Positions 11,319-48,762 of a stretch of DNA of 64,000 bases are shown here, one piece after another. Source of the stretch: an uncultured Gemmataceae bacterium (GTDB lineage Bacteria; Planctomycetota; Planctomycetia; Gemmatales; Gemmataceae); assembly GCA_963750165.1 (NCBI GenBank), contig CAVVPN010000003.1, positions 544,001 through 608,000 on the forward strand, read 5' to 3'. The stretch's first letter is position 1; each line of letters begins with the position of its first letter. Made by a program: the position numbers and the translations under genes. The notes beneath the pieces are model-generated. The model was not told where the DNA came from. It did not search any database and saw nothing but the letters and a program-made list of their open reading frames with translations.

Positions 11319-12038
11319 TCAGCCACACACCTCGACGCCGGCCCTCCGTCCTCGTCGCAGGACCCACCAGGCGGCGGGCGACAGAGCCGTGATCGCGAGC
11401 AGCAGTGATGACGGCTCCGGCACCACGGCCGACCCCGAACCGCTCACAGTGATCGTCCCGTCCGGCGCGTTGAAACTGAGGTTGTTGTCCTGGTCGTCCG
11501 AAAGGCTGGTCGTCGGATAGGACAGGAACGAGACAGTGACCGGGCCGTTCGGCGTGCCCGCGGCGACGTTGAACGACACGTGAGCCAGGCCCACCGTTTC
11601 ACCCGACCCCAGTGACGTGCCGCCGACGGCGGCGAAATCGGAGGCCGTCAACGAGAGGCCCGGCGCGGACGGGGCGATGTCCGGCCCGAACAGGGAGTTG
11701 CCCACGGACGTGGTGATGTCCGGCCCGAACAGAGAGTTGCCAGCGAAGACGTACGGTAACGTCGTGTTGATCTGGGCGTCCGTGAACGTGATATTCGACG
11801 ACGAACTCTGGATGCCGAACGAAAAGCCGGCGATCGTCACCGCGCTGGAACCGGAATTGGTCAGCGTGATTTCGAGGTCATTGCTCGTTGAGCCGGCAGT
11901 TGCCGTGGTCGATTGTACGTTCAAGGTCAGTATGAAACCCGCCGAGGCGGGTGCGACGGCGAGTAGCAGCACTGCCACGGCGACGGCCAGGTACCGGAAC
12001 TCCGCGAAGGAGCAAGAACGGTTGGGTGAGTGGTTCAT
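11319..12038 (-). CDS. PEP-CTERM surface protein with a cohesin-like beta-sandwich
   Basis: Signal peptide ending ASA; C-terminal VPEPSSLLLAITALSPAAWWVLRRGRR; body follows cohesin-like strand pattern ending DGTITV. Confidence 0.85.
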   Translation of the reverse strand: MNHSPNRSCSFAEFRYLAVAVAVLLLAVAPASAGFILTLNVQSTTATAGSTSNDLEITLTNSGSSAVTIAGFSFGIQSSSSNITFTDAQINTTLPYVFAGNSLFGPDITTSVGNSLFGPDIAPSAPGLSLTASDFAAVGGTSLGSGETVGLAHVSFNVAAGTPNGPVTVSFLSYPTTSLSDDQDNNLSFNAPDGTITVSGSGSAVVPEPSSLLLAITALSPAAWWVLRRGRRAGVEVCG

Positions 12039-12145: not shown

Positions 12146-15100
12146 TTACAGGTGGGCTCCGATCCGGCTGCGTGCGAGCCCCATGTCCGTGTTGTCCACC
12201 ACGCCGTCGCCGTTGATGTCCATGAAGATGTCGTAGGGCTGGCCGATGGCGTTCCGGACCGCAACCACGTCGGCAGCGTCCACGGCCCCGTGGCCGAGGG
12301 TGTCGCCGTAGAGGACATTGAAATTCTGCGCGAAACCATCGCCCAGCGTATTCCCGGCCGCGTCCTTGACGGCGTCGGGACCGCTGCCGGCCAGCAAGGT
12401 CGAAAACGCGCCAATGGTCAGGGGGCTGATGGTCCAGGTCAGGCTATCGGTGCCCAGACCGCTGAAGCCGGTGACGCTGAGGCCCGCGAGGCTGTTGGCG
12501 TCGGCGGAGGCGATCGGCTTGCTGAAGACGACTTCGATGCCGGTGATCTGCCAGGGCAGGTCGAAGCGTGCCGAGCCGATCAGGTCGTACTTCTGCGAGC
12601 CGAACAGGACGTAGAAGTGCAGCACCGTCGGGGCGGTCGTGTCGATGACCAGGTTGCTGTTGGCGCTGAGCGACCCTGCGGTTCCGGGCGCGGACAGGGC
12701 GAGCAGTGCAGGGTTGGGGTTGTTGTCGGTGTCGGCGATACTGCCGCCCTCGAGCGCCAGGGCGAAGGACGTGGCGGCGTCGAGGCGAGCGCTGTTCTCG
12801 CCGGCACCGACGACGTAGGTGAAGGAGAGGGTGCTCGTGCCGCTGCCGCTGGTGTACTGGGCCGTGCCGCCGGAATTGAGCGCCAGCTGCGGGGTGCCTG
12901 TCACAACCACCGGCTTGCTGAAGGTGACCTGGACCAGGATGGTGGTCCCAATGCCGTAGGTCCCGTTCGCCGTCGTCGTGGTGACGTTTGTCACCGCCGG
13001 GGCGACGGTGTCGATGACCAGGTTGCTGCTGGCACCGAGCGACCCGGGGCCACCGGCGGACGCCAGCGTCAGCACGACCGCGTTCCCATCGGCGTCGCGG
13101 ATGGCGCCGCCATTGAGGGACAGCGCGTTCGAGTCGGTGTAGTCGAGGTGACTGCTGTTCTGGCCACCGGCCACGACGTAGGTGAACACGAGCGTGCTGG
13201 AGCCACTGCCGCGGGTGTACGAGGCCGTGCCGCCAGAATCGAGCGCCAGCTGCGGCGTGCCGGTGACGTTGACGGTCCCGTTGAAGCTCACGCTCATCAG
13301 GATCGTGGCGCCGACGCCGTAGGTTCCGTTCGCCGTCGTCGTGGTGACACTGATCACCGTCAGGGACGAGTTGACGTCCTGCTCGAGGGCAACGGGCGTG
13401 CTGCTCGGCAGAGAGTCGTCCTGGCCGGTATAGGAGGCGGTAATGAAATGCTGGCCGACGGACAGGGTCGAAACGGGGAGCGTCGCCACCCTCCCGACCA
13501 GATCGCTGGTCCCAAGCACGGCCTGGCCGTCGTAGAAGGTGACGCTGCCCGCCGGGACGACACCGCCGGTCGCGGACTGGACGGTGGCCGAGAAGGTGAC
13601 CGTCTGGCCGTAGACCGACCCCGACGGTGCGTCGGAAGTCAGCGTGGTCGTGGTGGCCGAGGCAACGGCGACATCGGAGATGCTGACGGAGCCGTTGAGC
13701 TGCGACGCGTCCGAACCGCCGATGAAGCGGAAGACGAGCCGTCCCGCAAGGCCTTGCAGAGAGGAGATGTCCAGGGTGACAACCTCGGAGCCGCTTGTCG
13801 CGCTCGCCGTAACGGTGACCCCCGTTGCTGCGACAGGCGTCGAGCCGGGCACCACGTCCTGGGCAAAGAACGAGTCGGTCTGCCCCTCAGCCGAGGGGAC
13901 CAGGGTGGCCTGCGTGGTCGGGTCGAGGAGCGAAACTCCGAATGCGTCCGGTGTGGCGCCGGACGGCACGGATTGATCGTACGTGAAGCCGTTGACGGTG
14001 AACGTGAGGGTCGATGCGCCGGTGGGGATGAGGAAGTCCTGGTACAGATCGACTTCGGCGTTCGTCGCGCTCTCGCTGATGACCGCCTGGTGGTTCGCGT
14101 TCACAATCACGTACTGCGGCTCGGACGTGGACCAGGCGGCCAGGTTGTTGGATCCCTGGTTGAACTGACCGTTGGTGAACGGCCCGACCGGCCCGGACGG
14201 CGGCGAGAGCAACAGCGGCTCCCCGTAGGCCGCGATCGGTGTGATGCTCGACTGGGCCAGCGGTAATGTGAACTGCGTGGCGCCGGAGGGTGTGCCCGAG
14301 GTTGTGCCGGAACTGGTTATCGGGGTCTGTGTCGAGGTCAGGGTCGTGGGCGTGGGTGGCGGAGAAGCGGCGTTCGCGACCGCCGCCACAGTGCCTGGGT
14401 TCGAAATGGCGGCGACCGTCCCGGTGCCGGTGGGTTGAGCGGTCTGGTCGATCGGGTCGAGCGCCAGCAGGTCTGCGAGTTGCGGGATGCGCCGCACCCC
14501 GGGCGTGATGGTGAGGTCCATCAGGTCGTGGGGTTCGGCGGAGTTATCGACGTCGGGCAACCCGAGCACGTGGCCCATTTCGTGTTCGACAACGGTGAGC
14601 AAATCGACCGCGCCGTAGGCCGGGCTGCTGCTGGTGGCGTCGAACTCAGTCGGCACAACGGTCTGGCTGAATACGGAGTTGTCCTCCGGGGTGGGGTCGA
14701 TGAACCATCCCGTGCCGGCTGCATCGGGGCTGATGGTGACGACGTTGACCGTGGTCGAGCCGACCTCATCAGCCGGCAGGGTGCCGATCTGGTAGGTGGC
14801 GGTTTGCAGCGCCTGGATCTGCGCGGCGGACGCGCCGGCCGCGGCCCAGTCGGCGATGGCCTGGGCGACGACGGTGCCGAGGATGTTCGGGGTGACCGTT
14901 TCGGACGCCGGGACCGTGCTCGGCGCCGGGGTGGGATCTTGGAGTAGAGCCTGTTGGGGGAGGGGTTGTGGGCTGGGTGCAGCAATGCGCACGTGGTAGT
15001 GCCCGTTGTGCCCAGAGGACCAACTAACGAACCCGACAAAGCCACTGGCAGGGTCATGCCAGAAGTAAGGGTCGTCGTAGAAAATCTGACCGACCGTGGG

Positions 15101-18100
15101 TGCCGTAGCATTCGCTTGGGCGTTCAATTGCTTAAAGTCGTTGAACTGGTTGATCAACAATGGCCTCACCACGTTCAGGTAGACTGGGTCGTAGGCCAGC
15201 AAACCCAGATCGTACAGCAAGGAGAGTTTGGCCTTGGCATTCGAACCCAGCAACTCGGTGGCGGGAACGGGCAGCCAGCCTTGCCAAACGCCCGTTCCGA
15301 TAAACAGGCTCTGAAGTGTGTCGGCCACAGAGCGGACCGCGAACACGTTCGTTCCTTGCGCATTCGTTCCGTAGTATTCCCACAAGACGCCAACGCCGGG
15401 CACAGTGCCCGAGGGATCTTGTGCCGCCGCGAGGCCGTAGAGCGCGGCGGTCGGTCCAGTCTTTTGATTGAACCACTGGAAGAACAAATGCGCGTTGGGG
15501 GCAATTCCTTCAGCGACATGGATCGGCCCTGTCGGATCAACGTCGAATTCGATACCACCTTGATGATCGTGGTGGGAAGGGTTCTTTTTCCCCGGCGCCC
15601 AGAACGGGCCACCCTGGGACAGACTGATGTCGCCGATCTGGAAATTATAGAAATCGAACGGATTGTAAGTGGCCACCTTTGTGACGGCAGCCAGCACCTG
15701 TCCGATCCATTGCGTTCCCCACGTGACGGAACTGTTGGTGAGGGCTGGGGAGTGGAGATTGTAGAAGCCGGAGTAAGGGCTCGCTTGAGCCAGTTGATTC
15801 CAAACCTGGGCGTTCGCCGCATTGAGGTAGGACAAGGTCTGCAGCGGGTCTTGAGAGGCTGTGACAACGCCCGATTGCGCTGCGACCGTGTAATTACCGT
15901 TTTGTCCGGTCACCAGAGCCGCTTGGAACAGCTTGATTGCATAAATCGTTGCGTCATCCGGTTGACCGTTCACCACAAGTCCCTCTGGCTGCGGTGTGTA
16001 TGGGGCGGGGAACGGGACCATGCTACGTGCGCCGGGAATTGTCGTCATTGTCGTCGGCGCGGCGGTGGTCTCGGGATAACCGAGGTAGCGGAGACGCTGT
16101 TGGACGCGGTAGACGTCGAGGGCATAGTCGAGGACGAAATTGGAGCCAGATTGGGGGGAAACGTCGATGGCGTTATTCGCCGGACCGACCGCTCTCGTGT
16201 CGAGCGAAAACGAAGAGTAATCGGGAGAACCGTTGTTGCCGATGCGGACGTACAGAGTCCCGTATTGACGGCCGTACCCAGGATAGGTAAAGGAAAAGGT
16301 CCCCCACACCCAGGTGGCAGGAGGAATGATGCCGTTCCGCAGTCCCAACACCTCCTGATCCGTGATCTTGGGAGCGAGGTAGAAAATGCCGGTGCTTGCG
16401 AAACTTGAGCTGGCGGTAGGCTGCAGGCCTGGGCTGATGAGGTTCGGCGGCTGAACAATGTCGAATTGGGCCGGCATGGTGTTTGGGGCGGGCGGAGTGT
16501 ACAGCAAGACGTCGGCGCCCGAGGCGTCAAAGGAATTGATGTCGAGAATGAAATCGGACGCGCCGTGAATCAGATCCTTCAAATTCTCTTCGACGATGTC
16601 TCCGTAGCCGTGTGGTCCCGAACCGGTGTCTACCACGATGTTATCGTTGGCAAACTGCTGGGAGCCGGACGTTTGAAGGTACTCGGGGCTGCCGGTGTCG
16701 CTGTCGCCGGAAGTGACGCCGACGAGGTACGACTGCATGGCCAGCCCGTGCGGGAGGCCGCCGATGGCGATGGGCGGCTCATCCCCAGGCGCCGGGTTGA
16801 CGGGCTCGAACGACGGGGCGTACGAATCGATCAGGCTCGGGTTGTACACGACGGACGGCGGCAACTGATAGTTGGCATCGACGTCGATGGCCGGATTGAC
16901 CGCGTCGATGCCCTGGACCGTCAGGATTCCCGGGGCTTCCTGGAGGACTTGCGCGATGTTATCAGGCAGGCCCGTGTTGTTCAGTGTGTCACTGATCTGC
17001 CGGATATCATACACCATCAGCGCCCCGGACCCACCCGTGACCGGGATGCCCGCGAAACTGGCGTACAGGTAGTTGCCGTCAGGCGAGACGGCAAGATCGA
17101 ACGGATACCCGTTGGGGATGGTGCGCGTCGCCGCAACGAGCTTCGGGTCGGTGAATGGGTTGGCGATGATGCCAATGGTGCTGCCGGCGGGGTTGAAGGC
17201 CGGGACGCCCTGGTTGTGGCTCGGGATGTTCGGATCCGGAAGGTTGTAGCCGGCGACGAAGGCGTACTTCCCGTCCGGTGTAATGGCGACGGCGCGCGCG
17301 TTGTTGACTTCGAACTCGTCATTCGCATTTCCCTGGAAACTGAACCCGGTAAAGTTGGCCGTCGTGCCCCCCTTGGTGATCAGCCCGAAGGCCTGGTCGT
17401 TGTGCACATAGTCGGTGAATGTGATGCTGTCGTCAGGCCCGGCGGTGACGCCGAACGGGTCCTGGCCCGCGTCGATCGAGTTCACCAACTGCCAGGATGG
17501 GATTTTGTTAGAACCGAGGGTCAGGTCGATGACGAAAATGTGGCCGTTGGCCGGCACGGGCGGCGTGGGCGGCAGTTCCTCGGTAGGGAGCGTGTTGGGC
17601 ACAGCGACGTAGAGCCGGCTGCCGTCGCTGTTGATCGCCAGGCCGCGTAACCCGTACGGGGCGGGGTTGATCCCCCCGAACTGCTGGACGACGGCGTTGG
17701 TCGGATCATCGAGGTTGATCGTGTATCTCAGGGTGTTGTAATGGGGCGACGCCGGGTCAATGTCGATGACGTAAACGAGTGGGTGTGACTCGTCGGTCAC
17801 GTAGGCGTACTGGTCGGCGGGATCGATCGTGATCTGGTACGGGGCGGCGTAGGGTGGAAGCCCGGTGACAGTGGCGACTTGCCGGAGCGCCATGGCATCG
17901 ACCACCGCGATACCCTGATAACCAAGCTCCGTGACGTACGCCCGGGTGTTGTCATGGGTCACCGCCACGTCTCCGGGGAAACTACCCGAGCCCAGCGAGA
18001 TCTCCGCCACGAGCTGGTTGAAGTTCGGGTTGGCGGTGGTCTGGGTGGGGTCATTTAAGTTCACCAGCACGGGCCGTGCGTCGAGCACCGCGAGCTGACC

Positions 18101-21100
18101 CAGGCTGTTCTGGCCCGAGCTGTATTGGGCCGCAAACAGGTAGCCGCCGGTGGGAGTCAGACTCGGCGCGTTGCTGACCAGTTCCTCGTTGGTGTCCGGG
18201 TCCAGCTTGGTAATGTCCACCGTCAGCGTGCCCACGGCGAGCGTCGGGGGCACCTGGACCTGGACCAGGGTGTCGGTGGGGGAGCCGACGACCTGAGCCG
18301 CCATGGGCGTGCCTTGACCGGGCGGGTTGAACCAAACGTTGGGGGTGGTCCCGCCGGGGCCCAACAGGTTCTGCCCCGAAATGTCCAGCAAGGGAGTCGT
18401 CTGGTTGAAGTCCAACTTCAGTGAGGTAATCTGGGCCACCTGTGGCTCGTAGCTCGGGTCCGGCATGAAGGTCGTCTGGAAGGTGTTGGCGGCGTCGGCG
18501 TTGATGCCGATCTGCTGCACCTGCGCGAGGGGTGGGCCGAGGACAGGGATGGAGACAAACTTGAACGTGTTCGGGCCGACGGGCGCCGTCAGAAGCAGCG
18601 TGGTCAGGGCGGCGGTGGTCGCGGTCAGGGCGTAGACGCCCGCGGTCGTGCCAACCAGGAATGCTCCGGTCGCGGTGAAGCCGGCGCCAAGGGTGATGCT
18701 CGCGGTCAGGAGGGCGGTGTTGACGGCAACCGCCGCCGCGACGTAGATGCCCGGTAGCCAGATGTGAGGGTACTGCGAGGCCGGCCGGGCATACCCGTCG
18801 GTGCCGATCACACCGCTGTCCGTTTGCAGCCAGAGCGACACGGTCCCGCCGCTGCCGTCCGGCATGCTTCCGTATCGGTAGAAGACCACGGTCGTGCCCG
18901 GGGTCACACCAGGCATCGGAATCGCCACTTCGACTGGTTGATTCAAGCTGGCACCACCAAAATCCAGATTAAACGGGCTGGCGGCCGTGACCCAGTTCGG
19001 CAGGGTAAGAGGTAGTGTCCCCTGGTATGGGGTGATGCTCACCTGTGCCGGCTGACTCAGCGCTCCTGGCGGTATCTTCACCAGGGCGCCGTTGGCCGCG
19101 CTCACGACCCCGCCGACCGGCCCAACCGTTGCCGGGCCCACCAGGGGCGGGCTGCCCGTTACCGGAACCACCAATTCCTGGCCGTTCTGGATGACCGTCA
19201 CCTTCGCGCTACCCGGCGCGACCACCGTGACCAGCCCGTCGGCACTTACCTGAGCGACGGCGGTGTTACTCGAAAAGTACAGCGCGCCAGAGGCGGCCTC
19301 GCTGGCGTCCTGGCCGTCCTGGGTAACTTCCAGTTGACGGCTGCTCCCGGGCGCCAGGGCGAGCGCCTGGGGATAGACTGCCAGGCCGGTGTAATCGGGT
19401 GTTGCGTCAAGGTCCGGGTCGTCAACGTTCACCACCGTCGCCGCCTGGATGCCGTGGCTGGAAACGACGAGCGCGGCGCTGCCCGGCGCGACCGCGGTGA
19501 GCTGACCCGTCGCGGCCACCGTCGTCACGGTCGGGTCGGTGGTCTGAAACGTCACGTAACTGGCCGGCAGCGCCACGCCCTGCTGGTCCGCGAAGTCGCC
19601 GGTGATCGTCATCTGCTGGGTGTCGCCCGGGTTGAGTTCCGGTGCGCGATCGGTGATGTCCAGCCCCACGAGTGCGGCGCTGCTCACCGTCACCGACACC
19701 GTGCCCGCGGGCGAGGTGCCGTACCCGTCGTCCGCCTGGAACTGGAAGCTCGCGGGGCCAGTGTACCCCGGCGCGGGTGTGAACGTCACCGTGTGCCCGT
19801 CCGGGTTCAGCACGGCTGTGCCGTCCTGAGCGCTCATCACCCGATAGTAGAGCGGATCGCCCAGCGGGTCGGTCGCGAGCGTCAACAGATCGACCGTCGT
19901 CGGCAAGTCCTGGTGCGTCAGCGCCTGACCGGCCGTGACGGACGGCGGCTGGCTCGACTGGAACCCCAGGTCGGCCGCCAGCAACTGCTCGTCGGCCGCG
20001 CTCACCGTCCCGTCCAGGTTCGCATCCGCCCCGAGCACATACCCCGGCTGACCCACCGACGTACCCAGCGCCGCAGCCAGCAACTGCCCGTCCACCCCGT
20101 TCACCGTGCCGTCGCCGTTCACGTCCCCGGCCACGAACGGCCGCAGCGAGTACCCGCCCGAGGTCCCGTTGGCACTCGGCACATCGAGCAGCTCCAGCCC
20201 CTCGCTCGTGATCGTGAACAGGGCGAACGAACCATTCGGACCGGAACTCGTCATCAGCGGCGTCAGCCCGGCGATCACCGGAATGCCCGGCTGGAGCGAA
20301 CTCCCGGCGGTGGGCGTCACCTGCACTCCAAGGTAGATCTCGCCGCTGTTGGTGGACCCGATCTCCGAAGCGCGGAACGTGAATACGTACCGGTCCGTGC
20401 CGCCCGCGGAGAGCGTGCCGGTCTGCGTACTCGTCAGGAATTGACCCGAAGTGCCCAGGTTTGCCGTCAGCGGCAGCACCAGCGGGGCCGGGGTGTACTG
20501 CACCACGGCGCTGTCACTGGCCACCGGCGAAACGATCAGATCCAGGAGGTGGGTGCCGGCCGAGTACCCGTACCGGCTCGACTGCCCCAGCGCGATGTTC
20601 CGCGCCGACATCAGATTGCCGGCCGAATCGTAGCTGTAAACTACCTGGCTCCCGTCGGACGCAGTGATCGTGGCGATGCGCCCTTGCGCGTCCGTCACAA
20701 ACGTAAGCGTGTCGCCGGTGGAACTGGTGATGCCGCCGTTGGTGAAGTACAGTACCGTCCCACCCGGCGTGGTTTCCTCCACGAGCTTGCCGGTGGCGCT
20801 CAGGTCGTACACGGTGCCGTCCGGACCTGTCAGCGTGTACGCCGCGCCGCTGAATTGTCCGCTGGCCGGGTTGTACGGCACCGCCGTCTTCAGGTCATAG
20901 AACCGATCGCCTGCCTTCACCAGGACACCGCCCGCGGAGGAGAGCATCCAGTTCATGCCCGGATCCGCCTGCCAGGCCGGAGTGTAGTACGTCACACCCG
21001 TTTGCGTGTGCGCCACCGGCTCGAAGGTGAACCCCACACGGCTGCCGTCCGGCAGCGTCAGGTACAACCGGGTTCCGACCCGGAACGGGTTGTACACACC

Positions 21101-22366
21101 CTGATCTTCCGACCCCGATGGCGGGACGTTGGTCTGGACGGCGAAATCGGTGTTGGCCAGCCGCCAGCCGTTGCCGAAGGTGCCGGACTGGTTGGCGGTG
21201 AGCGAATCGTACTGACGGGTCAGGGTCACCGACACACCGCCGAGCTGCACCGTCAGGTCGGACTCAGTGCGCAGGTACTGTGTGGACTTGGCCGCCGTGT
21301 CCACTTCGACCACGGCTTCGGTCTGGCTGGTGCGGCCGCTGATGTTCGTTGCCGTCAGCCGGAGTTCGTAGAATCCGTTCTCCAGGGCGGTCGGGTCGAA
21401 CGACGCCAGGGCGCCTGAGAACACGTTGGCGTTGCCCTGCGCCAGGGTGGTGAAGTCGGTGCTCCCGAGCGGCGCGAAATCCAGCACCCACGAATCCAGG
21501 TTCGTGTCGCTGATCGTGCCGACGACGCTCGTCGGAGCCTTCAGCGGGTCCGCGCTCAGGTGCGGGTCGAGTTCCACGACCGGCACGGCAAGGTCGTTCG
21601 GGTCGCGCACCTTGAGCACGGTGGCGTACTGGCCGACGAGCCCGTCGCCGTCGGTCGCCGATGCGTTGACGGAGTAGCGACCGGGGGTTGGTGGGGTGAA
21701 CGTCCCGCGGCCCTGGCTGTCGAGGGTGAGCACCTGGCCGTTCACCTCGGCGGTGAGCCCGGCGATCGGCGCGACGCTGGCGGCGATGACGTGGATCAGC
21801 ACCGGCGACCCGGGCAGGTCCGGGAAGCTCGGGGTCAGGACGACCTGGACGCTCGGCGCCATCGAGGCGAGCGTGGACCGCAGGAGCACCGTCTGACTGG
21901 TGCTCGTCTGGCTGTCGGCGGCGGAGAACGTCACCGAGTAATCACCCACCTGGGTCGGCCCGGGCGTCCAGGTGAACTGACCCGTTTGCGCGTTCAGAAC
22001 GGCCCCTTCGGGCATTCCGAGGGCCGAGTAACTCAGGGTCAGTCCCTGGTTCAGCTCGGTGCCCACCAGTTGGAAGTTGAGTGCTTGACCGACGACCGCG
22101 GAGTGGCCGATCACACTCAGGGTCGGGGTGCGGTACGTCGGATCGATGTGGACCTGGACGGAGATGGTGTCACTCAGCCCGGTCGCATCGGTGGCACTGA
22201 ACTGGACCGTGTAGTCGCCCGCCTGAACGTAGTTCGGGGTCCACTGGAACTCGCCCGAAGTATTGTTGAACGTCGCGCCGGTCGGGAGCCCGGTGGCGCT
22301 GTAGGCAACCGGGTCGCCGTTCGGGTCGCCGGCGACGACGGCGAACTGGATCGGCGTCCCCTCGCG
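12146..22366 (-). CDS. Giant protein C-terminal segment: He_PIG, YD repeats, dockerin, Ig (Big_2/Big_9), YVTN beta-propeller, PG-binding + murein endopeptidase, HExxH, Big_3, terminal dockerin
   Basis: ORF 12146-22114 extends in frame to ~22366; motifs YSYDSAGNL, GDVNGDGTVNGVD, PYGLRGLAINSDGSRLYV, HEMGHVLGLPD, DINGDGVVD. Confidence 0.85.
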   Translation of the reverse strand, partial: REGTPIQFAVVAGDPNGDPVAYSATGLPTGATFNNTSGEFQWTPNYVQAGDYTVQFSATDATGLSDTISVQVHIDPTYRTPTLSVIGHSAVVGQALNFQLVGTELNQGLTLSYSALGMPEGAVLNAQTGQFTWTPGPTQVGDYSVTFSAADSQTSTSQTVLLRSTLASMAPSVQVVLTPSFPDLPGSPVLIHVIAASVAPIAGLTAEVNGQVLTLDSQGRGTFTPPTPGRYSVNASATDGDGLVGQYATVLKVRDPNDLAVPVVELDPHLSADPLKAPTSVVGTISDTNLDSWVLDFAPLGSTDFTTLAQGNANVFSGALASFDPTALENGFYELRLTATNISGRTSQTEAVVEVDTAAKSTQYLRTESDLTVQLGGVSVTLTRQYDSLTANQSGTFGNGWRLANTDFAVQTNVPPSGSEDQGVYNPFRVGTRLYLTLPDGSRVGFTFEPVAHTQTGVTYYTPAWQADPGMNWMLSSAGGVLVKAGDRFYDLKTAVPYNPASGQFSGAAYTLTGPDGTVYDLSATGKLVEETTPGGTVLYFTNGGITSSTGDTLTFVTDAQGRIATITASDGSQVVYSYDSAGNLMSARNIALGQSSRYGYSAGTHLLDLIVSPVASDSAVVQYTPAPLVLPLTANLGTSGQFLTSTQTGTLSAGGTDRYVFTFRASEIGSTNSGEIYLGVQVTPTAGSSLQPGIPVIAGLTPLMTSSGPNGSFALFTITSEGLELLDVPSANGTSGGYSLRPFVAGDVNGDGTVNGVDGQLLAAALGTSVGQPGYVLGADANLDGTVSAADEQLLAADLGFQSSQPPSVTAGQALTHQDLPTTVDLLTLATDPLGDPLYYRVMSAQDGTAVLNPDGHTVTFTPAPGYTGPASFQFQADDGYGTSPAGTVSVTVSSAALVGLDITDRAPELNPGDTQQMTITGDFADQQGVALPASYVTFQTTDPTVTTVAATGQLTAVAPGSAALVVSSHGIQAATVVNVDDPDLDATPDYTGLAVYPQALALAPGSSRQLEVTQDGQDASEAASGALYFSSNTAVAQVSADGLVTVVAPGSAKVTVIQNGQELVVPVTGSPPLVGPATVGPVGGVVSAANGALVKIPPGALSQPAQVSITPYQGTLPLTLPNWVTAASPFNLDFGGASLNQPVEVAIPMPGVTPGTTVVFYRYGSMPDGSGGTVSLWLQTDSGVIGTDGYARPASQYPHIWLPGIYVAAAVAVNTALLTASITLGAGFTATGAFLVGTTAGVYALTATTAALTTLLLTAPVGPNTFKFVSIPVLGPPLAQVQQIGINADAANTFQTTFMPDPSYEPQVAQITSLKLDFNQTTPLLDISGQNLLGPGGTTPNVWFNPPGQGTPMAAQVVGSPTDTLVQVQVPPTLAVGTLTVDITKLDPDTNEELVSNAPSLTPTGGYLFAAQYSSGQNSLGQLAVLDARPVLVNLNDPTQTTANPNFNQLVAEISLGSGSFPGDVAVTHDNTRAYVTELGYQGIAVVDAMALRQVATVTGLPPYAAPYQITIDPADQYAYVTDESHPLVYVIDIDPASPHYNTLRYTINLDDPTNAVVQQFGGINPAPYGLRGLAINSDGSRLYVAVPNTLPTEELPPTPPVPANGHIFVIDLTLGSNKIPSWQLVNSIDAGQDPFGVTAGPDDSITFTDYVHNDQAFGLITKGGTTANFTGFSFQGNANDEFEVNNARAVAITPDGKYAFVAGYNLPDPNIPSHNQGVPAFNPAGSTIGIIANPFTDPKLVAATRTIPNGYPFDLAVSPDGNYLYASFAGIPVTGGSGALMVYDIRQISDTLNNTGLPDNIAQVLQEAPGILTVQGIDAVNPAIDVDANYQLPPSVVYNPSLIDSYAPSFEPVNPAPGDEPPIAIGGLPHGLAMQSYLVGVTSGDSDTGSPEYLQTSGSQQFANDNIVVDTGSGPHGYGDIVEENLKDLIHGASDFILDINSFDASGADVLLYTPPAPNTMPAQFDIVQPPNLISPGLQPTASSSFASTGIFYLAPKITDQEVLGLRNGIIPPATWVWGTFSFTYPGYGRQYGTLYVRIGNNGSPDYSSFSLDTRAVGPANNAIDVSPQSGSNFVLDYALDVYRVQQRLRYLGYPETTAAPTTMTTIPGARSMVPFPAPYTPQPEGLVVNGQPDDATIYAIKLFQAALVTGQNGNYTVAAQSGVVTASQDPLQTLSYLNAANAQVWNQLAQASPYSGFYNLHSPALTNSSVTWGTQWIGQVLAAVTKVATYNPFDFYNFQIGDISLSQGGPFWAPGKKNPSHHDHQGGIEFDVDPTGPIHVAEGIAPNAHLFFQWFNQKTGPTAALYGLAAAQDPSGTVPGVGVLWEYYGTNAQGTNVFAVRSVADTLQSLFIGTGVWQGWLPVPATELLGSNAKAKLSLLYDLGLLAYDPVYLNVVRPLLINQFNDFKQLNAQANATAPTVGQIFYDDPYFWHDPASGFVGFVSWSSGHNGHYHVRIAAPSPQPLPQQALLQDPTPAPSTVPASETVTPNILGTVVAQAIADWAAAGASAAQIQALQTATYQIGTLPADEVGSTTVNVVTISPDAAGTGWFIDPTPEDNSVFSQTVVPTEFDATSSSPAYGAVDLLTVVEHEMGHVLGLPDVDNSAEPHDLMDLTITPGVRRIPQLADLLALDPIDQTAQPTGTGTVAAISNPGTVAAVANAASPPPTPTTLTSTQTPITSSGTTSGTPSGATQFTLPLAQSSITPIAAYGEPLLLSPPSGPVGPFTNGQFNQGSNNLAAWSTSEPQYVIVNANHQAVISESATNAEVDLYQDFLIPTGASTLTFTVNGFTYDQSVPSGATPDAFGVSLLDPTTQATLVPSAEGQTDSFFAQDVVPGSTPVAATGVTVTASATSGSEVVTLDISSLQGLAGRLVFRFIGGSDASQLNGSVSISDVAVASATTTTLTSDAPSGSVYGQTVTFSATVQSATGGVVPAGSVTFYDGQAVLGTSDLVGRVATLPVSTLSVGQHFITASYTGQDDSLPSSTPVALEQDVNSSLTVISVTTTTANGTYGVGATILMSVSFNGTVNVTGTPQLALDSGGTASYTRGSGSSTLVFTYVVAGGQNSSHLDYTDSNALSLNGGAIRDADGNAVVLTLASAGGPGSLGASSNLVIDTVAPAVTNVTTTTANGTYGIGTTILVQVTFSKPVVVTGTPQLALNSGGTAQYTSGSGTSTLSFTYVVGAGENSARLDAATSFALALEGGSIADTDNNPNPALLALSAPGTAGSLSANSNLVIDTTAPTVLHFYVLFGSQKYDLIGSARFDLPWQITGIEVVFSKPIASADANSLAGLSVTGFSGLGTDSLTWTISPLTIGAFSTLLAGSGPDAVKDAAGNTLGDGFAQNFNVLYGDTLGHGAVDAADVVAVRNAIGQPYDIFMDINGDGVVDNTDMGLARSRIGAHL

Positions 22367-25300
22367 CCGGACTGCGGCACCAGCGGCACCAGGGTCGGGG
22401 CCTGGTTCAGGTGCGCGACCGTGACGCTCACGGTGGTGGACGCGCTCAGGTAGCCGTCGCTGGCGGTGACGCCGATGGTGTAGTTCCCCTCCTCGAAGGT
22501 GTTCGGCGTCCAGGTGATCGTCCCGGTGCGCGGGTCGATGGCCGCGCCGGGCGGCAGGCCGGTGGCCGCGTAGGTGAGCGCGTTGCCGTCCGCGTCCGTG
22601 GCGGCCACGGTCACCGAGAAGGGCTGGCCGGCGACGACCGCCTGGGGGTTGACCGGCGGGAACATCGGCGCATCATCGCTGGCGCGGACGGTGATGTGAA
22701 CCGTCTGCTCGTCACCCAGCACCGGACCGGCGCCATTGTTGCCGTTATCGGCCACCTGGAAGACCACCGTGTCCATCCCGGCGTCGGCGTCGGCGGGCGT
22801 CCAGGCGAACACCGCCTGACCGTACGTGTTCGTCGGAGTCAAGGTCGCGGTGCCCGGCAGGCCCAGCGCGCTGAAGGTGAGCGGATCCTGGTCGCCGTCG
22901 GTGGCCTGGAGGGTGAACTGCAACGGCTGACCGATGACGGCCACCTTGTCGCCGGTGGGGACCAGGTGGGGCGGTTCGTTGGGCACGTTCACCGAAAGCA
23001 CAAATGACTGGCTCGTGGACAGGATCGCATACCGGCCGTTCCCGTCGCCGTTGTCGGTGGCGGTCAGGGTGATCGTGTAGTTGCCGCGGTCGGACAGCCC
23101 CGGCGCGAACTGGAACTGCCCGGTCCCGTCGCCGTTGTCCATGAACGTGGCGAACGTTGGCAGGCCGGTCACGGTCAACTTCAGCGGGTCGCCGTCCGGG
23201 TCGGTGGCCGTCACCGGCAGCGCCAGGGTCGCGCCCCCGTTCACGGTCTGGTTGGCAATGGTCGGAACGACCGGGGCCTGGTTAACGTTCAGCACCGTGA
23301 TCGGCACCGTGACGCTGGTGCTGAGCGGGGTGCCGGTGCCGTCGCCGTCGTTGGTGGCGGTGAACGTGACGTTGTACGTCCCGGCGTCGGTGTAGCCCGT
23401 CCGCCAGTTGAACTCGGCCGTGACCGGGTCGAACGTCGCGTCGGCGGGCAACCCGCTGACGGTATAGGTGATCGTCGGGTTGGTGCCCTCGAGCGGGGTG
23501 AGCGTCCCGTTCGCGGTCCGGTCCTGGGGGATGAACCCTGGGTTATTCGGGTCCGTGGCGAACGCCAGGAACGTGATGTCCTGGCCTTCGGCCACGCGCC
23601 ACCCGCCCAGGTTGTCGAACACCGGGGGTGCGTTCACGTTCAGCACTGTGAACGTGGTCGTCACAGTGGTGGACTGCTGCCCGTTGTTGACGGTGAACGG
23701 GACCTGGTAGACGCCGTGCTGATCGTACCCTGGGGTCCAGTCGAACACACCCGTGTTCGGGTCCAGGTACGCGCCACCTGGCAGGAAGGCGCTCGAGTAC
23801 GTGAGCGCCAGACCGTTCGGGTCGGTCGCCGCGAGCGGGATGTGGATCGACTCGCCCTCGAGCACGGTGCGGTCTGCCGGGCGCTGGATTGCCGGCGGCT
23901 GAACGGTCGGCGCGATGAGCAGCGTTGTAGTTTCGCTCACCGTGCTGATCCCGTCGCTGACGAAGAACGTGACGTTCAGGTACGTGCCCGCCTGCCCGGC
24001 GGCCGGGGTCCAGGTGAGGGTCTGTTGCTGCTCATCGAACACCGCGCCGGGTGGCAGGTTGTCGGCCCAGTAGACGAGCGGGTTGTCGGCGGGGTCGGTG
24101 GCGCTGACGGCGATCTGGAGCTGTTGCCCTTCCTGGCCGTTCTCGATGGCTGGCAGCGAGGTGAACACCGGCGGCGCGTTCACGCCGGAAACGGATACGG
24201 TGAACGTCTGCTGGGCGTGCGAACCGCGGGAGTTGTACACCTCGACGATCACCGAAGCCTGACCCGGGCTGGCTACGGTCGGCGTCCAGGTGATGAGGCC
24301 CGAGCGCGGGTCGATCGTCATCCCGGCCGGACCCTGGTACAGCAGGTAGCTCAGCGCGGCGTCGTTCGGGTCGTGGGCCGCGACCTGATACTGGTATTCC
24401 TGGCCGACGGCCCCCGTCGCGACCGGCTGCGAGTCGATGATCGGCGGCGCGCTCGGGGCCGGCATGGCCAGCGCGCCGGTCTGGAACGACGGGCGCAGCC
24501 CGGATGGGTCCGAGAACGTGATGGTGATCGGCGCGGACGTCTGGCCGGGCGTCAGCCGCCCGCCCGCCACCGCGCTGCTGAGGTCCACCCACCAGGTCCC
24601 AGTGGGCGACTGCTGGCCCGGCAGGTTGAGCACCCGGGCGTCGGTCGGGCCGAGCGAGTCGAAGGTCAGGACGAACGGCGCCAGGATGTCGTAGCCGGTG
24701 ATGTTGGTCAGGGTGATGTCGTACGAGTACGTCTGGGTGACCGCGTCCGCCCGGCCGTTGGCGAAGTGGATGGTCACGAGCGCGGTGGCGTCGGCCACCG
24801 CGCGAAAGTCGGTGGCGTAAGGGGAAACGAGGGTCAGGCCGTTGGCGGCCTCGACGCCGATGCCGACCGTGAGGGTGTAGTGGTCCGGGGCGAGGGAATC
24901 GAACGTCAGGACAGCCGTCCGGGTGGCCGCGGCGTAGGTGACGCCGGAGATGGTGATCGGGCCGGCGTTGTCTCCGACGAGGGTGTAGTTGGCCGGGTTG
25001 GTGACCGAGTTCGGGTCGGTCGGGCTGTCGGCCAGCATGTCCTCGTCGAACGTGACGCTCAGGCTCCCCAGGGGCAGCGCCACGAGCCCCTGCGCCGGCG
25101 GGTTGGTGCTCGACACCAGGGGCGGCTGGATCGGGCTGATTACGTCGATCTGGTTCGTCTGGCTCAGGAACACCCGGCCGTCGGCGCTGGTCTTGAGTTC
25201 GTCGCCGCGGGTGCCGCCGGTCGCCACCGCGACCTGCTGGAGGGTGGCCAGATCGACCATCGAGAGTTCGGTCCCGGACGCGCCCGGGTCCGGCTCATCG

Positions 25301-28300
25301 TGCGACACGAACAGAAGCCCGTCGAGCTTGCTCCCCGAAACGCCGAAGGCGATCGAATCGACCGGCGCGGCGAACTGGAGCATCACCTGCGGTGAAACCG
25401 CCGACTGAGGCTTGGTCAGGTCGAACCGGACCACGTCGTTGGTGCTGTCCGGCCAGGCGGCGGCCCACAGGCTGCCGTCCGGGGCGAACGCCAGGCTGCC
25501 GACCCGGATGTCGCTGTAGTGGCGGAACGTGTGCGCCACCGGGTCGAAGATCTCGATCCCGCTGCCGGACGACACGTAAATGAGGCCGGTGCCGGGCTGG
25601 ATCGCGAGGCTCTGGGTCAGGCTGTCGCCCCACTGGCCAAGCACCGCGACGGTGGTCGGGTTCAGTTCCACCAGGGGGCCGCCGCCGGTGGTGGCCCAGA
25701 CGTTCCCGGCGCTGTCGAGCGCCATGTCGTAGATTGGGAACGGCTCGGTCGCCAGCGGCGTGCCGGCCGTGCCGCCGCCGCTGGGGAACAGGAACAACTG
25801 ATTGCGGGCCGGGCCGCCGCTGGCGAGGACGGTGTGGTCGGGCAGCGGCAGCAGCGCCAGCGGGCCGATGCCGGCCTCGCTCTGGCCGATGCCGGTGGCG
25901 AACGCCTGGGCCGAGAACGGCTGGAGCACGCTCTTGAACTCGGACGGATTGCTCGCCGGGGTCGAGGCCGGGATCCCCTGCTGGGCCTGGGTGAACAGCG
26001 CGTTGGTGGACTGACCGGTGGGCTGGGCGGGAGTACCGAGGCTCGTCTGGGTGGTCGTGACCGTGGGGAGGGTGCCCAGGTTCGCACCCGAGCCGGAATC
26101 CGGAACCAAGAGCGGCGGCGGCGGTGGCTCGACGTTGCCGGCGTTGTCGGTGGCCAGCGCCAGGAACTGGTACATGTGCCCGGCCTGGCCGTTGTAGATG
26201 CCGCTGGTGGCGGTGGTCTGGTCGAGCCAGATCTGGTAGTCGCCGCCGTCCTCGGACACGAACACGGTCACCGATTTGACCCCGGACCCGCCCGGGTCGT
26301 CGGTGGCGGTCCACTGGACGTTGTAATCGGACCCGCCGGGCGTGATGGGGGCGACCGTCAGGGTCGTGGTTGGGGCCGTGCCGTCCACGGTGCTGGTGGC
26401 GGTGTTGGTGGTTTGCGGGGGCGCGTTGTTGAGCTGCACCTGGGCCTGGGCGCTGATGGTCGTGCCGGTGGCCAGCCCGGCCAGCGGCTGGACCGTGTAC
26501 GTGACGAACCCTTCACCGGCCCCGCTGGCGTCATTCGGCGGGAGCAGCCCCCTGGTCGGGTTCTGGATGAGCGTACCGGTGTTCGGGTCGATCGCCTGGA
26601 TGAGCCAGGTGATGGCGTCGCTACTGATGTCGATGCCGGCCGAGACGCGGAGGATGAACCCCTTCGTATCGGTGTAGTCGAAGTCGCCCTGGAACGAGCC
26701 CAGTCCCGCCGGAATGTTGACCGACAGATCCCCGATCTGGAGGCTGCCGAGGCGGAAGCTGCGCGGGTCCAGCTTCGGGTCGAGCTGTTCAATGATCTGG
26801 ATCTGATTGGTTGTGGAGGACGCGCCGGCGGGGTTGGCGAACTGGATCGTGTACGGCAGCGCGTGGCCCACCGGGACAAACTGCTGGACCCCGAACCCGT
26901 ACGGGCCGGTGATCGTGTCCTGGCCCTGGGCAGCCGTCGCGGAGAGGTACTGGGTCAGGTTCGGCGGCGCGACCGTGACAAAGTTCGGGTTCTCGGGGTG
27001 GGTCACGTCGGAACCGGCCGAGTCGTCGTCGCCCGGACCGGCGTCAAAATCGTTGGCGTACGGGACGTACACGTTGAACGCCTCGAAGTGGGTCGGCTGG
27101 GAGGCTTGCAGGTCGTACATGCTGGCCGGCGGGGTGTTGGCCTGGAGGTATGGTCCGCTCCCGTCGTCGTCCGCCGGGTTCAGGTCCTCCCCGGTGCCGA
27201 TGTACGGGGACACCTGCGTCTGGTCGCCCCCGTACCAGGTGCGCACCTGGGCGAAGAACTGGGTCAGGTTCCCGGTGGTAATGATCTGCTGGCCGGCCGG
27301 GCCGGCGAGGATCCCAGCACTCAGGGTGGCGATCAGGCTCGGCACCAGCGGGTTGGCCCGCACCGCGGGTGGCACATCGACCGGCTGGAGGATCCCGGCC
27401 TGGGACAGGGCCGTCAGGTACAGCGCGTCCCAGTTGGTCGCGTCGGCCGCCAGGATCTGGAGGCCCGGCGCGGCCGTCGGGTCCTTGAGGATGGCCTGCC
27501 GGAGCTGCTCGGCGAACGCGGTCTGCTGGGCGACGAACTCGGCGCCCGTCAGCGGCGTGGCCGCGGCCATGATGTGGAACGCGAACGCCGTTTCGGCCGG
27601 CGGGTTCATGCCCGCGCCGGGCGGGAGACCGTTGGGGTAGGTCTGGACGTTGAACGTCAGCCCGATGTTCGAGCGGTCGGCGAAATTGACGGCGTAGCCG
27701 GTGGCCAGGTCCTCGCCCCCGGTGTTGATGACGTTGCCGGCGGTGTCCCAGGCCACGCCGGACACGTTCGGATCACTGTCGGCGCCCAGGTTGGTGGTGA
27801 ACCCCAGGTACGGGACCGGGGGGGATGAGCCGTCGCCGGGGTTCAGCGGCAGGGCCGGGATCCCGTACTGGAACTCGACGTAGGGGATATCGACGTTGGT
27901 GAGGCTCTGGAGAGTGAACCCGTAGAGCCCGGAACTTCCGGCCCAGACGACCCGCGGGCCGCCGAGCCCGACCGTGACGTCCGGGGGTAGCGCCTGCTCG
28001 ACCAGGTATCGGTACGGGGCGAACGCGGTCGAGCCGTCCGGGTTGATCACCTCGATGTCGTACAGCCCGTGCGGGGCGCTCGTGAGGTCGAAGATGGCCA
28101 CGATGGTGGTGCTGTTCACCACCTGGTAACTGGCCGGCTCGTATTCGGCGAACCCGGGACGGACCAGCTTGACGACGGCATCCGGGGAGAACTGCGCGCC
28201 GGTGATGGTGGTGGTGACGTACTTGCTGTCGCCCCCGTTGTCCGGGGTCACGTCGGTGACCTCGAACGGCAGCACCTGCGCCAGGAGGGTGACCGCCGTG

Positions 28301-31300
28301 GGGCCGGACGGTTCCGACTGCCCACGGACCAGGACGTAGTACACCCCAGCCTTCGTGGAAGGGATGACGGCGTACTGGTTCGCCTGGAGCGGGCCCTGGT
28401 AGATGGCGTCGTAGACGGACCCGGTCGGGACCGCGTTGTACCGCAGGTACAGTTCGTTGGACGCCGCCGGATCGGACGAGGTGAGGTCCACGCGCAGGGT
28501 CTGGCCCTGTGCCACGGTCACCTGGTAGAGCTGGGTCTGGCCGGTGGCGAGGGTGGTGCTCAGGGGCACGCCCAGGTGCAACTCGGGCACGGTCACGCTC
28601 ACCACGTCCGCCGAGGCGGTGGTGTTGTTGAGCTTGTTGCTCTCGGGCACCTGGTCGAAGATGTCGGTGCGGACGATCACCCGGTACTGCCCGGCGCGAC
28701 GGCGGGCATGGTGACATCGGTGGCGCCGGTGTACGTCTGGCCCGGCATGAGCGTGCCGCCGGAGTATCTGATCGTGCCCAGGAGCGGATCACTGATGGAC
28801 CAGGTGGCGTCCGGGGACAGGTACAGGGCGTCGCTCCAGGAGCCGTACGCCGCGTACGTGCCGATGTTCTCGACCGTCCACTGAATGTGGGCCGACTGAC
28901 CGGCCATGGCCGACCCCGGCACGGGGACCGTTTCGACCTCAAGGTCGGCCGGCGGCGGCTGGTCGATGATGAGCGGGACGGTGGTGGCGGTGGCGTTGTT
29001 GGTCTCGTTGGACTCGTACACGCTGCCGCGCGGGTCCGCACCGACGAGCGGGTCGGTGATGACGATGACGTACCAGGGGCCGAGCAGACCCGTCGGGGTC
29101 TGGAAGGTGAGCGTGTTGGTGTAGCCGGCCCCGGCGGCCAGCGCGCCGGAGTGCTGGAAGAATCCGAGGTACGTGTCCGCCGGGTCCAGGATCGGGTCGC
29201 GCGACAGGTAGACGGCGTCGGTCCAACTGGTCTGCCGGGCGAGGGTGGCGCCGGCGCCCTCATTGGTGACCGTATACGTGACGGTAAACGACTGGCCGGA
29301 GTAAACGTGGTCGGTCTGCATCGGGTCGGGGCCGGCGGCCGCGGCCGCGGTGACCTGGAGGTCCGGCAACAGGGTCGCCTGGACCGGCAGGAGGCCTGCC
29401 GTAACGTTGTCCCCCTCACCCTGGAACTCCGGGACCATGTTCATGGCCTCGGTGACATACGGAACGTCCAGCGGCGTGGTGCTCGGCTTCACCGAGTCGG
29501 TGTAGACGAGGATGTAGTAGTTCCCCTGGATCCCGTACGGCAGGGTGACGTTGAGCCCGGCGGTGTACGAGCCGCCCATCGGCAGGCCGGACGTGTGAGG
29601 CACGACTCCCAAGGACACGGCGGTGTCGTCCAGCGACGGGGACTGCGACAGGTACACGCTATCGACCCAGTACCCCTCGCGGGTGTCGCGGCTGCCGACG
29701 TTGGTGACGGTCCAGGTGACCGGGATGGTGTCCCCGGCGTGCGGGGCCGTGGTCGGCACGACCAGGTTCGTCACCCGGAGGTCCGGCTCGCGGTAGAGCA
29801 CCGGGATCGACCCGCCGCCGATGTTGTTCGTCGGGTCCTCGTACCCGTTGCTCTCGAAGTAGTCGCGGCTGGCGTCGTTGTCCGTACCTCCCGTGCGCGT
29901 CAGGCCGTAGGGGTCCGTGACGACGTACACGTAGAACGGCGCCGGGGCGTTCCCCATGCCGCCGATGCCGCGCGGGAGCGTGAAGGTGAGCGTGCCGGTG
30001 TAGCTCTGCCCCGTGCCCAGCGGCTGGTCGTTGCTGTGTGGGACGCTCCCGACCAGAAGCGTGTATGCGTCGTCGGGCAGGAACGTCGAGTACGGGGACA
30101 CGTACACCTCGTCGGTCCAGTACCGGGTGCCGGACCAGACCGTGCGCCGAAGTTCTCGACAGTCCACTGAACGGCGGTTTTCTCGCCCGAGTAGTTGGAC
30201 GCGGGGCCGGTCACGGAGGTGACCCGGAGGTCGGCGGTCGGCAGCGGGGTGACCAGGGTCGATGCGGAAGCGGTGTTGTTGTTAGTGTACGGCCCCTCCC
30301 ATGTCGGGAGGGTATTGGGGCCGCCCGTATTGGTGTCCACGATCACGTACGTCCCGGAGATCTCCGGGGACAACTGGAACGTCTGCTGGGCCGTGTAACT
30401 GGCCCCGGCCGCGACGGCCCCGTCGTGCTCGACCACGCCCAGGAGCCACTGCTTGGCGCCAGGTGCGTTGAGGGTCGGCTGGTTCGACAGGTACACGGTG
30501 TCGTACAGGACCGAGTCCTCGGTCGGGCTTGTCCCCTCGTTCTGGACCGTCCAGCTCACCGTGTAGTTGTCCCCGCCCACCGCGGTCGCCTGCGGGTGGA
30601 CGGCGGTCACGACGAGGTCCGGCGGCGGGGTGAGCAGGACGGTGATCGGCCGGGCCTTGTAGTTGTCGTTGTTGAGCTGGTGCGGGTCGTCCGGGTTGAT
30701 GTTGACGTCGAAGGTGCTCTTGATGAGCGTGTCGAACGAGTCGGCCCAGGGTGTGATGTAGTACTGCCCGGAAATGTGCTTGGGCAGGGTGACCGTGGTG
30801 CTGACCGTGTAACTCCCGGGTGGGGACAGGACGCTCGGGTCGTTGCCCAGGACCCCCTGGTGGGTGAGTGTGGTCAGGAGTACGTCACCCTTCGACGGGT
30901 TCGGCCGGGTGGGGTCGTGGGTCAGCCAGATGGTGTCGGCCCAACTCGGCAGATCGGTCGGGCCGGCGCCCTTGTTGGACACAGTGTACTGGACGGTGAT
31001 GGTGGTGCCGTCGTACGTCTGGTCCGGGGCCGCCACCGCGCCGGTGACCAAGTCGGCCGGCGGCAGCGGGCTGATGGTGATCGGCCAAACGAACGTGTTA
31101 TTGTTGCCGTTCGGGCCCTCGTTCACCGCGTCGTCGCTGTTGGTCTGGACGATCAGGTACGCGGGGCCGCTGAACCGCTGGGGGATGACCAGGTCGCCGG
31201 TCTGGGTCTGGTACTCCGCGTTCGGGTCGAGGGCCGACTGGTTGGCGAACCTGCCCAGGAGCGTGGCGCTACCGTCGAGCGTGCCGTGGAGCGACAGGTA

Positions 31301-48749: not shown

Positions 48750-48762
48750 ATTTTCCCCAGCG

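Follow-up and report, generated by a model that had tools for sequence, protein, structure and literature searches.

Giant proteins are abundant in planctomycetes and mostly without a function; dockerin-rich huge proteins have been described in Planctomycetota (PMC11573180, PMC12673574; here, as with every paper cited below, in the part of its text that was available). The locus examined here raises the question of why a planctomycete without detected peptidoglycan (PG) synthesis genes should carry what appears to be a PG hydrolase inside such a protein. The window is a stretch of 64,000 nucleotides from an uncultured Gemmataceae bacterium (assembly GCA_963750165.1, contig CAVVPN010000003.1, positions 544,001 to 608,000), and its minus strand encodes a surface protein of about 9,400 amino acids (aa) in which a predicted PG-binding and MepA-like module is embedded. 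The module is a cassette seated in an internal slot of this protein, and the content of the slot is exchangeable. We consider it fairly probable that the protein is a cohesin-tethered giant adhesin presenting a wall-binding MepA-like endopeptidase that cuts the PG cross-links of other cells. If so, one giant-protein family gains a testable logic, namely a constant adhesion scaffold, an exchangeable enzyme slot and a dedicated cohesin anchor, and there would be a reason for PG hydrolases in an organism without detected PG genes.

A predicted peptidoglycan-binding and MepA-like module

An earlier note on this DNA had picked out the motifs of a PG-binding domain and of a MepA/LAS murein endopeptidase, and we found all of them where it placed them, on the minus strand and within one open frame that runs from stop to stop between positions 22672 and 12149 (3508 codons; Table 1). 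LAS metallopeptidases are defined by an H-x(3-6)-D motif together with an H-x-H motif (PMC3927764), and the module contains both; all six motif histidines and aspartates are intact, and there are no cysteines. A homologue search against 1.84 billion representatives returned 14 matches at E<=0.001, 13 of which are true relatives of the module; the other, P0013, is a repeat artefact and was dropped. The motif columns are kept across the database relatives, the six residues being present in each of the 14 database proteins in which both motifs are covered and retained in the nearest relative, P0001 (44% identity). When a 37-row homologue profile was compared with solved structures, MepA was the closest relative (E 3.2e-12), and the two zinc motifs were aligned. 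The match is a stepping-stone one, as 19 of the 37 rows had been supplied by an earlier profile, which found them as short MepA-like domains in other genomes.

The AlphaFold model of the module has a mean predicted local distance difference test score (pLDDT) of 69, with block means of 85, 77 and 89 over the motifs and 114 residues below 50, mostly within two insertions. Its best fold match is again MepA (Z 11.3, root-mean-square deviation (rmsd) 3.2, 165 residues aligned, 16% identity), and the structural alignment of model residues 24-395 on residues 29-221 of the MepA chain covers both zinc motifs. The model has the LAS core fold, with further matches to Hedgehog (Z 7.0), VanX (5.6) and LdcB (5.5). 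The first 115 residues are modelled with the three-helix fold of PG-binding domains and match the corresponding domains of 4lpq, 4xxt, 6tci, 5nm7, 3bkh and 1lbu (Z 7.0-9.0, rmsd 1.9-2.6 over 62-71 residues). The reading put forward in the earlier note holds by profile and by fold, and the prediction of a PG-binding domain joined to a MepA-like LAS zinc peptidase is supported.

Several comparisons count against this identification. As a single sequence the module scores 18.2 bits with Pfam M74 (PF03411) and 13.7 bits with PG_binding_1, under the respective cut-offs of 25 and 23; searches of its own genome with the Peptidase_M74 and PG_binding_1 families gave no match, nor did phmmer of the module against the PDB. 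Foldseek, the comparison that the earlier note had proposed, ranked MepA first, weakly (E 1.4e-3, template modelling (TM) scores 0.27/0.41). We did not assign the module to M74, because its score lies under the Pfam cut-off; we place it, as a prediction, in the LAS superfamily and liken it to MepA in its presumed action.

Word-indexed homologue searches were nearly blind to the module (0 matches for the whole open reading frame (ORF), 1 and 3 for alignment A2), and pattern scans found no close relative in genome, metagenome or viral contigs, which therefore shows divergence, not absence. In the 9.6-Mb host genome a scan of all six-frame segments of at least 60 aa for the MepA-type pattern had one match, the window module; the pattern is thus more than a chance occurrence, and the module is present as a single copy. 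The module is sporadic, occurring in 4 of 267 genomes of the order and 6 of 121 of the sister family; searches of family genomes found it in 0 of 150 with the single protein and in 3 of 251 with the alignment. Outside this scaffold it is found in other giant planctomycete proteins and in small PEP-CTERM/dockerin proteins, and it is fused elsewhere to amidase_3, M15_4, SleB-type, C70 and PLD domains (amidase_3 with M15_4 in P0010, SleB-type with M15_4 in L038).

The module might be mainly a PG-recognising adhesin, or might cleave a peptide other than the wall cross-link. Among 16 long-type copies cut from loci of other planctomycete genomes, nine keep the four core residues and seven lack at least one of them; the module in giants can therefore persist without catalysis, which weighs against an enzymatic role. 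The low-confidence insertion of about 90 aa within the peptidase domain, the low identity to MepA and the breadth of the LAS fold, whose Hedgehog, VanX and LdcB members all appear in the fold lists, also fit this explanation. However, all six residues are retained in the window copy, in P0001 and in every database protein spanning both motifs, and the fusions with amidase and M15 domains likewise speak for a wall enzyme, so that we consider the explanation rather unlikely.

In other giants, L035, L058, L183, L185 and L187 (also L032 and L184), module copies are found whose zinc or catalytic residues are gone and whose binding domain is kept. Judged from their sequences, these degenerate copies are possibly pseudo-enzyme adhesins.

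An exchangeable cargo slot in a constant carrier

Beyond what the earlier note described, the module belongs to a set of interchangeable cargoes, and its carrier adjoins a gene for a cohesin partner. The slot lies between two constant flanks, a beta-propeller and a metzincin-like domain, and its content was counted in the 19 scaffolds in which both flanks are in view. Slots are about 0.8 to 10 kb long. Seven contain an alpha/beta-hydrolase-like block, five an RHS core with a tip, three a subtilase and two a pesticin-like muramidase; the present module and a small unknown domain each fill one. The pesticin-like muramidases of L133 and L141 have Pfam E-values of 4e-4 and 6e-4, under cut-off; the alpha/beta-hydrolase-like label rests on a GHSxG-type motif and mutual similarity, Pfam having given the slots no such name; and the subtilase of L051 was assigned by likeness to a paralogue. 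One alpha/beta-hydrolase-like block (L070) bears a non-specific endonuclease, which also occurs in the excluded L142. Excluded from the count were loci that end before the right flank (L049, L050, L064, L067, L071, L142), have the 'X' domain alone downstream (L061, L068, L132, L137, L138, L147, L162) or have no propeller (L047, L048, L136, L148-L161, L163-L166), as well as the weak RHS-only matches L072-L131 and three loci returned twice by two tools. The host genome has three paralogues of the carrier: the slot of one holds BNR-like, subtilase and PKD repeat domains, that of another a full RHS core with a variable tip, and the third is without the whole block.

On a tree built from the upstream flank (29 rows, with the too fragmented L051 left out), 11 cargo changes are needed, the minimum being 6. 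Starred sister pairs with differing cargo are L132 (RHS) with L133 (pesticin-like) and L140 (hydrolase) with L141 (pesticin-like); the placement of the window's row is not starred. L133 is among the closest scaffolds to the window, 57% identical upstream and 69% in the metzincin-like domain behind the cargo, yet holds a different wall hydrolase. A point against free exchange is that cargo labels are more clustered on the tree than shuffled labels (11 changes against a mean of 15, with 2 of 200 shuffles as low), and exchange is therefore not unrestricted.

Codon use is an independent signal of cassette exchange. The GC content at third codon positions (GC3) is 0.73 in an adaptor-like region and 0.69 in the module, lower than in the adjoining segments before (0.85) and after (0.88) them. 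The paralogue's RHS tip (0.72 vs 0.94) and the slot of L141 (0.70 vs 0.90) show similar contrasts, the subtilase slot a smaller one (0.78 vs 0.84); one other dip along the carrier, to 0.74-0.78, lies in the region that we take to be ZU5-like. The adaptor-like region travels with the module: a profile built from 15 other module carriers matches the window adaptor (i-E 1.6e-5) and both pesticin-like cargoes (1.4e-4 and 5.8e-4) and none of 9 other slot sequences, the E-values referring to a set of 12 sequences, and genome-wide it matches nothing at E<=1e-3. In P0001 the module is followed by the metzincin-like domain, in the same order as in the window.

Could the cassette instead belong to a polymorphic toxin, excised by flanking processing domains and delivered into the periplasm of a competitor rather than tethered? 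The slot does combine a variable effector with a constant carrier (six cargo classes on 19 scaffolds), five of the 19 hold an RHS core with a variable tip, and slots are low in GC3. Furthermore, one tip in the host genome weakly resembles EndoU-type clusters (score 0.89, low recognition), tips of a related scaffold subfamily have Tox-REase-9 matches under cut-off, and ZU5 and metallopeptidase domains are given as releasing proteases in PMC3482391. However, the window module is not a C-terminal effector, since about 940 aa follow it (the RHS tip of L132 is terminal); the next gene encodes a cohesin and not an immunity protein; a single module copy in the genome means that there are no orphan cassettes; and neither an HFS motif in the ZU5-like stretches nor, by Pfam, a delivery-system domain in the ORF was seen. 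No adjacent immunity gene was found at the window locus, and we regard a released toxin as unlikely.

A search with the flank alignment matched 26 of 401 genomes of the class, and full-length carrier homologues are found in records of Proteobacteria, Cyanobacteria and Zixibacteria. L064 and L067, which carry an actinobacterial genus label and an alphaproteobacterial one, are closely related scaffolds (branch lengths about 0.1), and their labels would reflect mislabelling, contamination or recent transfer. In each of the 19 scaffolds counted the slot ends at the metzincin-like domain, which is also found after RHS tips and may serve in processing or release or act on a substrate of its own. In a second scaffold subfamily (L148-L157, L164, L165) the ZU5-like region and the propeller are missing and a dockerin is followed by an RHS core with variable tips, two of which give the Tox-REase-9 matches. 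P0001 switches abruptly to unrelated content past about residue 650, after the start of the 'X' domain, and its sequence suggests that it is probably a chimeric or frameshifted gene call.

The giant carrier and its frame changes

The earlier note had placed the module in a huge adhesin, and its carrier is indeed a giant surface protein. From the N-terminus it comprises an export motif, a repeat region, Big_9, CARDB repeats, He_PIG repeats, a short RHS region and a dockerin, followed by Big_2, the ZU5-like region, the beta-propeller, the slot, the metzincin-like domain, the 'X' domain, immunoglobulin-like (Ig) domains and a second, C-terminal dockerin. Pfam named Big_9, CARDB, He_PIG, RHS, dockerin, Big_2 and Big_3 domains; it had no match on the N-terminal motif. 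The region between Big_2 and the propeller is labelled ZU5-like by us as a tentative assignment. HFS is the autocleavage signature; ZU5 autoproteolysis was not supported, Pfam having given no ZU5 match on the region and no HFS motif having been seen in the ZU5-like stretches. The N-terminal motif, LxLExLExRxxP, is a surface-export motif in Tuwongella (PMC8567305). Together with the names of close scaffold homologues, it points to a planctomycete host, probably of the Gemmataceae.

Seven frame changes, all upstream of the module, interrupt the gene between 40352 and 22177, and they weigh against a working protein: the gene might be a decaying pseudogene whose module is not expressed. The essential rpoC of the same assembly is likewise split by frame changes although rpoB is whole, which makes assembly indels the likelier cause of the breaks, and a paralogue in the same genome with one open frame of 8117 aa aligns continuously across the four lower breaks. 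Moreover, there is no in-frame stop over the 3508 codons of the last of the eight frames, which contains the module, its motifs are intact, and GC3 in the upstream pieces is 0.89-0.94. From these sequence comparisons the seven frameshifts are probably assembly errors, and decay is quite unlikely. Among sequencing runs one of DNA (share 0.05) and none of RNA was listed for this genome; contigs of the DNA run gave no cover at 14001-16668 and none usable at the frame changes. At the rpoC locus itself (G000:C12:312568-321531) the 3' part is present twice, about 4.7 kb apart, as assembly noise.

A predicted cohesin anchor

The gene directly behind the carrier encodes a signal peptide, a single cohesin and a PEP-CTERM-like tail. 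Its model has a pLDDT of 90, and cohesins head the Foldseek list (E 6.6e-10, TM 0.69/0.77); the PEP-CTERM match in Pfam is under cut-off. An immunity protein had been considered for this gene and was rejected on account of the cohesin fold. A 24-row cohesin profile had one match genome-wide. Cohesin homologues are present in 51 of 121 sister-family genomes, and a dockerin-type motif lies 199-766 nucleotides upstream in 27 of the 30 loci listed, a count made without a shuffled control.

The predicted pair (68-aa dockerin, 167-aa cohesin) gave a complex model with a score of 0.85, against 0.01 for the best control; of 157 solved complexes 116 pass the mark that it reached, as do 2 of 215 mismatched pairs. 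At least 86% of contacts are shared between runs, and the partner pLDDT is 88 or higher. Since cohesin-dockerin complexes have already been solved, the pass may reflect likeness to them, which is a point against the pairing. On the basis of the model the C-terminal dockerin probably docks on the PEP-CTERM cohesin of the next gene. An enzyme-bearing protein with a dockerin and a cognate cohesin with an anchor, their binding being modelled, correspond to known surface display; there is one cohesin domain here, and not a multi-cohesin scaffoldin.

Peptidoglycan genes of the host and the likely target

In the host genome, which is 93% complete, searches for Mur_ligase (MurC-F), Transpeptidase (PBP) and FtsW/RodA (SEDS) gave 0 matches, each search being positive in 10 of 14 controls. 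One Mur_ligase_M match is putatively FolC-like, and matches to mraY and murA are far under cut-off. A Mur_ligase match was found in 2 of 101 family genomes, and PG synthesis genes are reported as absent in most Planctomycetales including Gemmataceae (PMC8567305). From its gene content the host appears to lack canonical PG synthesis, which makes foreign PG the likely substrate, and a foreign substrate would explain why no immunity gene was seen. The incompleteness of the genome and the chemical reports of PG in some planctomycetes (in the reference list of PMC12673574) weigh against this.

The earlier note had offered neighbouring bacteria, scavenged PG and the cell's own wall as targets; the first two are favoured and the last is very unlikely, for although MepA acts on the wall of its own cell (PMC6403190) and the missing 7% of the genome leaves room for a role in opening host PG, for instance for passage of giant proteins or for budding, the synthesis genes were not found here or, for Mur ligase, in 99 of 101 family genomes, the module is rare in the order and the sister family, and other scaffolds of the same kind do without it, so that it is not needed for export. 

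An anmK gene lies beside a C26 peptidase gene in the host, and AnmK is present in 46 of 76 family genomes. At this locus (G000:C4:222134-224432, L222) the C26 gene directly precedes anmK, an arrangement kept in 5 of 6 relatives checked. In a family mostly without Mur ligases, the pair is possibly a salvage locus for foreign wall fragments. Two points stand against this: MurQ was not found in the host above cut-off, so that only part of a salvage route is shown, and kinases of the AnmK family may act on other sugars.

Proposed function

We propose that the module was acquired as a cassette into the internal cargo slot of a giant protein that would be exported by means of its planctomycete motif and retained at the surface by its C-terminal dockerin. 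The Ig, CARDB and propeller arms may adhere to surfaces or cells, and the module, as a zinc-dependent endopeptidase, would cut stem-peptide cross-links in PG that the host does not make. It would act on wall debris or on monoderm neighbours, whose walls are exposed; both would be within reach of a tethered enzyme, and the periplasm of intact diderms would not. A host without canonical PG synthesis would need no immunity protein. The presence of an unrelated wall hydrolase, the pesticin-like muramidase, in two other scaffolds is in line with this proposal.

If this proposal of a tethered wall endopeptidase is right, feeding on dead or lysing cells has a slightly better than even chance and damage to live neighbours a slightly lesser one, the two not being exclusive: cargoes for the breakdown of protein, lipid, nucleic acid and wall are in keeping with feeding, and the RHS tips and the fast exchange suit conflict. 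A bolder version, which we consider doubtful, is that planctomycetes that have lost PG synthesis use cohesin-tethered giants with an internal, exchangeable weapon slot to lyse walled bacteria when they touch them and to feed on them, the slot being loaded with MepA-like or pesticin-like enzymes, nucleases, proteases, lipase-like enzymes or RHS toxins; being wall-less, they would need no immunity gene. This would amount to a polymorphic, cellulosome-anchored system of predation or competition in ordinary soil and freshwater planctomycetes. The matter touches on the question whether other bacteria are attacked or recycled by common heterotrophic planctomycetes; in other planctomycete classes, predatory members are known (10.64898/2026.10.26.761892).

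Relation to known systems

Already known are M74 with a PGB1 domain, polymorphic toxins, cohesin-dockerin display in planctomycetes and wall-degrading giants in Omnitrophota. The module shares with MepA/M74 (PF03411; PDB 1tzp, 1u10) the fold (Z 11.3) and the aligned motifs GD.S...GG..H..H..G.D.D and H..H.H. It differs in scoring under the Pfam cut-off, in its 16% identity, its insertion of about 90 aa and its lack of cysteines, MepA holding disulfides, and in being embedded in an exported protein of about 9,400 aa in a host without detected PG synthesis. The combination of M74 with PGB1 is tabulated in PMC6403190, and PG_binding_1 together with M74 is found on 19-46% of the members of Atlas clusters (0.91-0.93) of 247-297 aa.

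Polymorphic toxins (PMC3482391) resemble this system in their constant carrier with exchangeable enzymatic cargo (RHS tips, nucleases, hydrolases, peptidases) and in the compositional break at the cargo. Here, in contrast, the cargo is internal, with the conserved metzincin-like domain, Ig domains and a dockerin closing it off; neither an immunity gene nor an orphan cassette was found with it, and CARDB and dockerin have 0 occurrences in the available text of that paper. The 'planctosome' and cellulosome anchoring share with it the cohesin-dockerin display of hydrolases on the planctomycete surface, including peptidase complexes (PMC6461901); in the present case a single cohesin with a PEP-CTERM-like tail is encoded directly behind its client, which is a giant with a variable slot and a probable PG target. 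The giants of Omnitrophota, implicated in the degradation of prey walls (bioRxiv 10.1101/2023.11.21.568195), also combine adhesive, wall-degrading and peptidase domains, some of dockerin type, but belong to another phylum and have another architecture; lytic transglycosylase, C39 and S8 are named in the text available, and no M74-like module or exchangeable slot. In the literature covered, which included few subscription papers and consisted of articles without their supplements, neither an internal exchangeable slot in this scaffold nor a PEP-CTERM cohesin anchor is described; supplementary domain tables of giant-protein papers could list such proteins.

Features of the locus and neighbouring genes

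Table 1. Features of the giant gene, its cargo module and the adjoining cohesin gene (window positions).
Feature	Position	Strand	Basis or remark
Giant surface-protein gene	12149..40352	-	about 9,400 codons, 8 overlapping frames
Frame changes (7)	near 39730, 37840, 37500, 33540, 30150, 28690, 22365	-	
N-terminus with export motif LxLExLExRxxP (LALERLEDRLAP)	40200..40352	-	sequence
Beta-propeller, constant left flank of slot	16730..18154	-	lactonase-type propeller E 3.6e-6; homologues; GC3 0.84-0.85
Adaptor-like region, part of cassette	16148..16729	-	travels with module; GC3 0.73
Predicted PG-binding and MepA-like module	16147-14960	-	396 aa
PG_binding_1-like helical domain with low-confidence insertion	15806..16123	-	fold matches; Pfam under cut-off
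DVYRVQQRLRYLGY	16117-16076	-	motif in module
NGQPDD...LFQAA	15970-15917	-	motif in module
MepA-like LAS zinc peptidase domain (predicted)	14984..15720	-	AlphaFold model, fold match, profile, motif columns
IGDISLSQGGPF	15637-15602	-	motif in module
HHDHQGGIEFD	15574-15542	-	motif in module
H-x6-D zinc motif	15565-15542	-	peptidase domain
Low-confidence insertion, about 90 aa	15520-15248	-	within peptidase domain
GHNGHYHVRI	15013-14984	-	motif in module
HxH zinc motif	15001-14993	-	peptidase domain
Additional histidines	15574 and 15010	-	peptidase domain
Metzincin-like domain, constant right flank of slot	14435..14917	-	Peptidase_M10 E 7e-4, under cut-off; GC3 0.88
HExxHxxGxxD; Met-turn-like motif	14584-14552; 14530-14516	-	metzincin-like domain, motif intact
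Conserved unnamed 'X' domain	13655..14194	-	homologues; also stand-alone PEP-CTERM genes
C-terminal dockerin	12149..12352	-	Dockerin_1 23.3 bits, cut-off 22.9; 68 aa
Signal peptide, single cohesin, PEP-CTERM-like tail	11319..12038	-	next gene; predicted surface anchor

Pfam had no match on the 'X' domain. Small PEP-CTERM genes lie near scaffold genes at G000:C4:224630-225655, at G000:C3:1679522-1680400 and in L132 (9174-9923, oriented), and at least two of them are built on the 'X' domain. Upstream of the giant gene, an ORF at 40826-41452 on the minus strand had no Pfam match at 1e-4; it looks like a transposase remnant. On the same strand, at 47261-51661, lies a cluster with VWA and FHA domains together with MotA/ExbB-type genes, which is not linked to the module.

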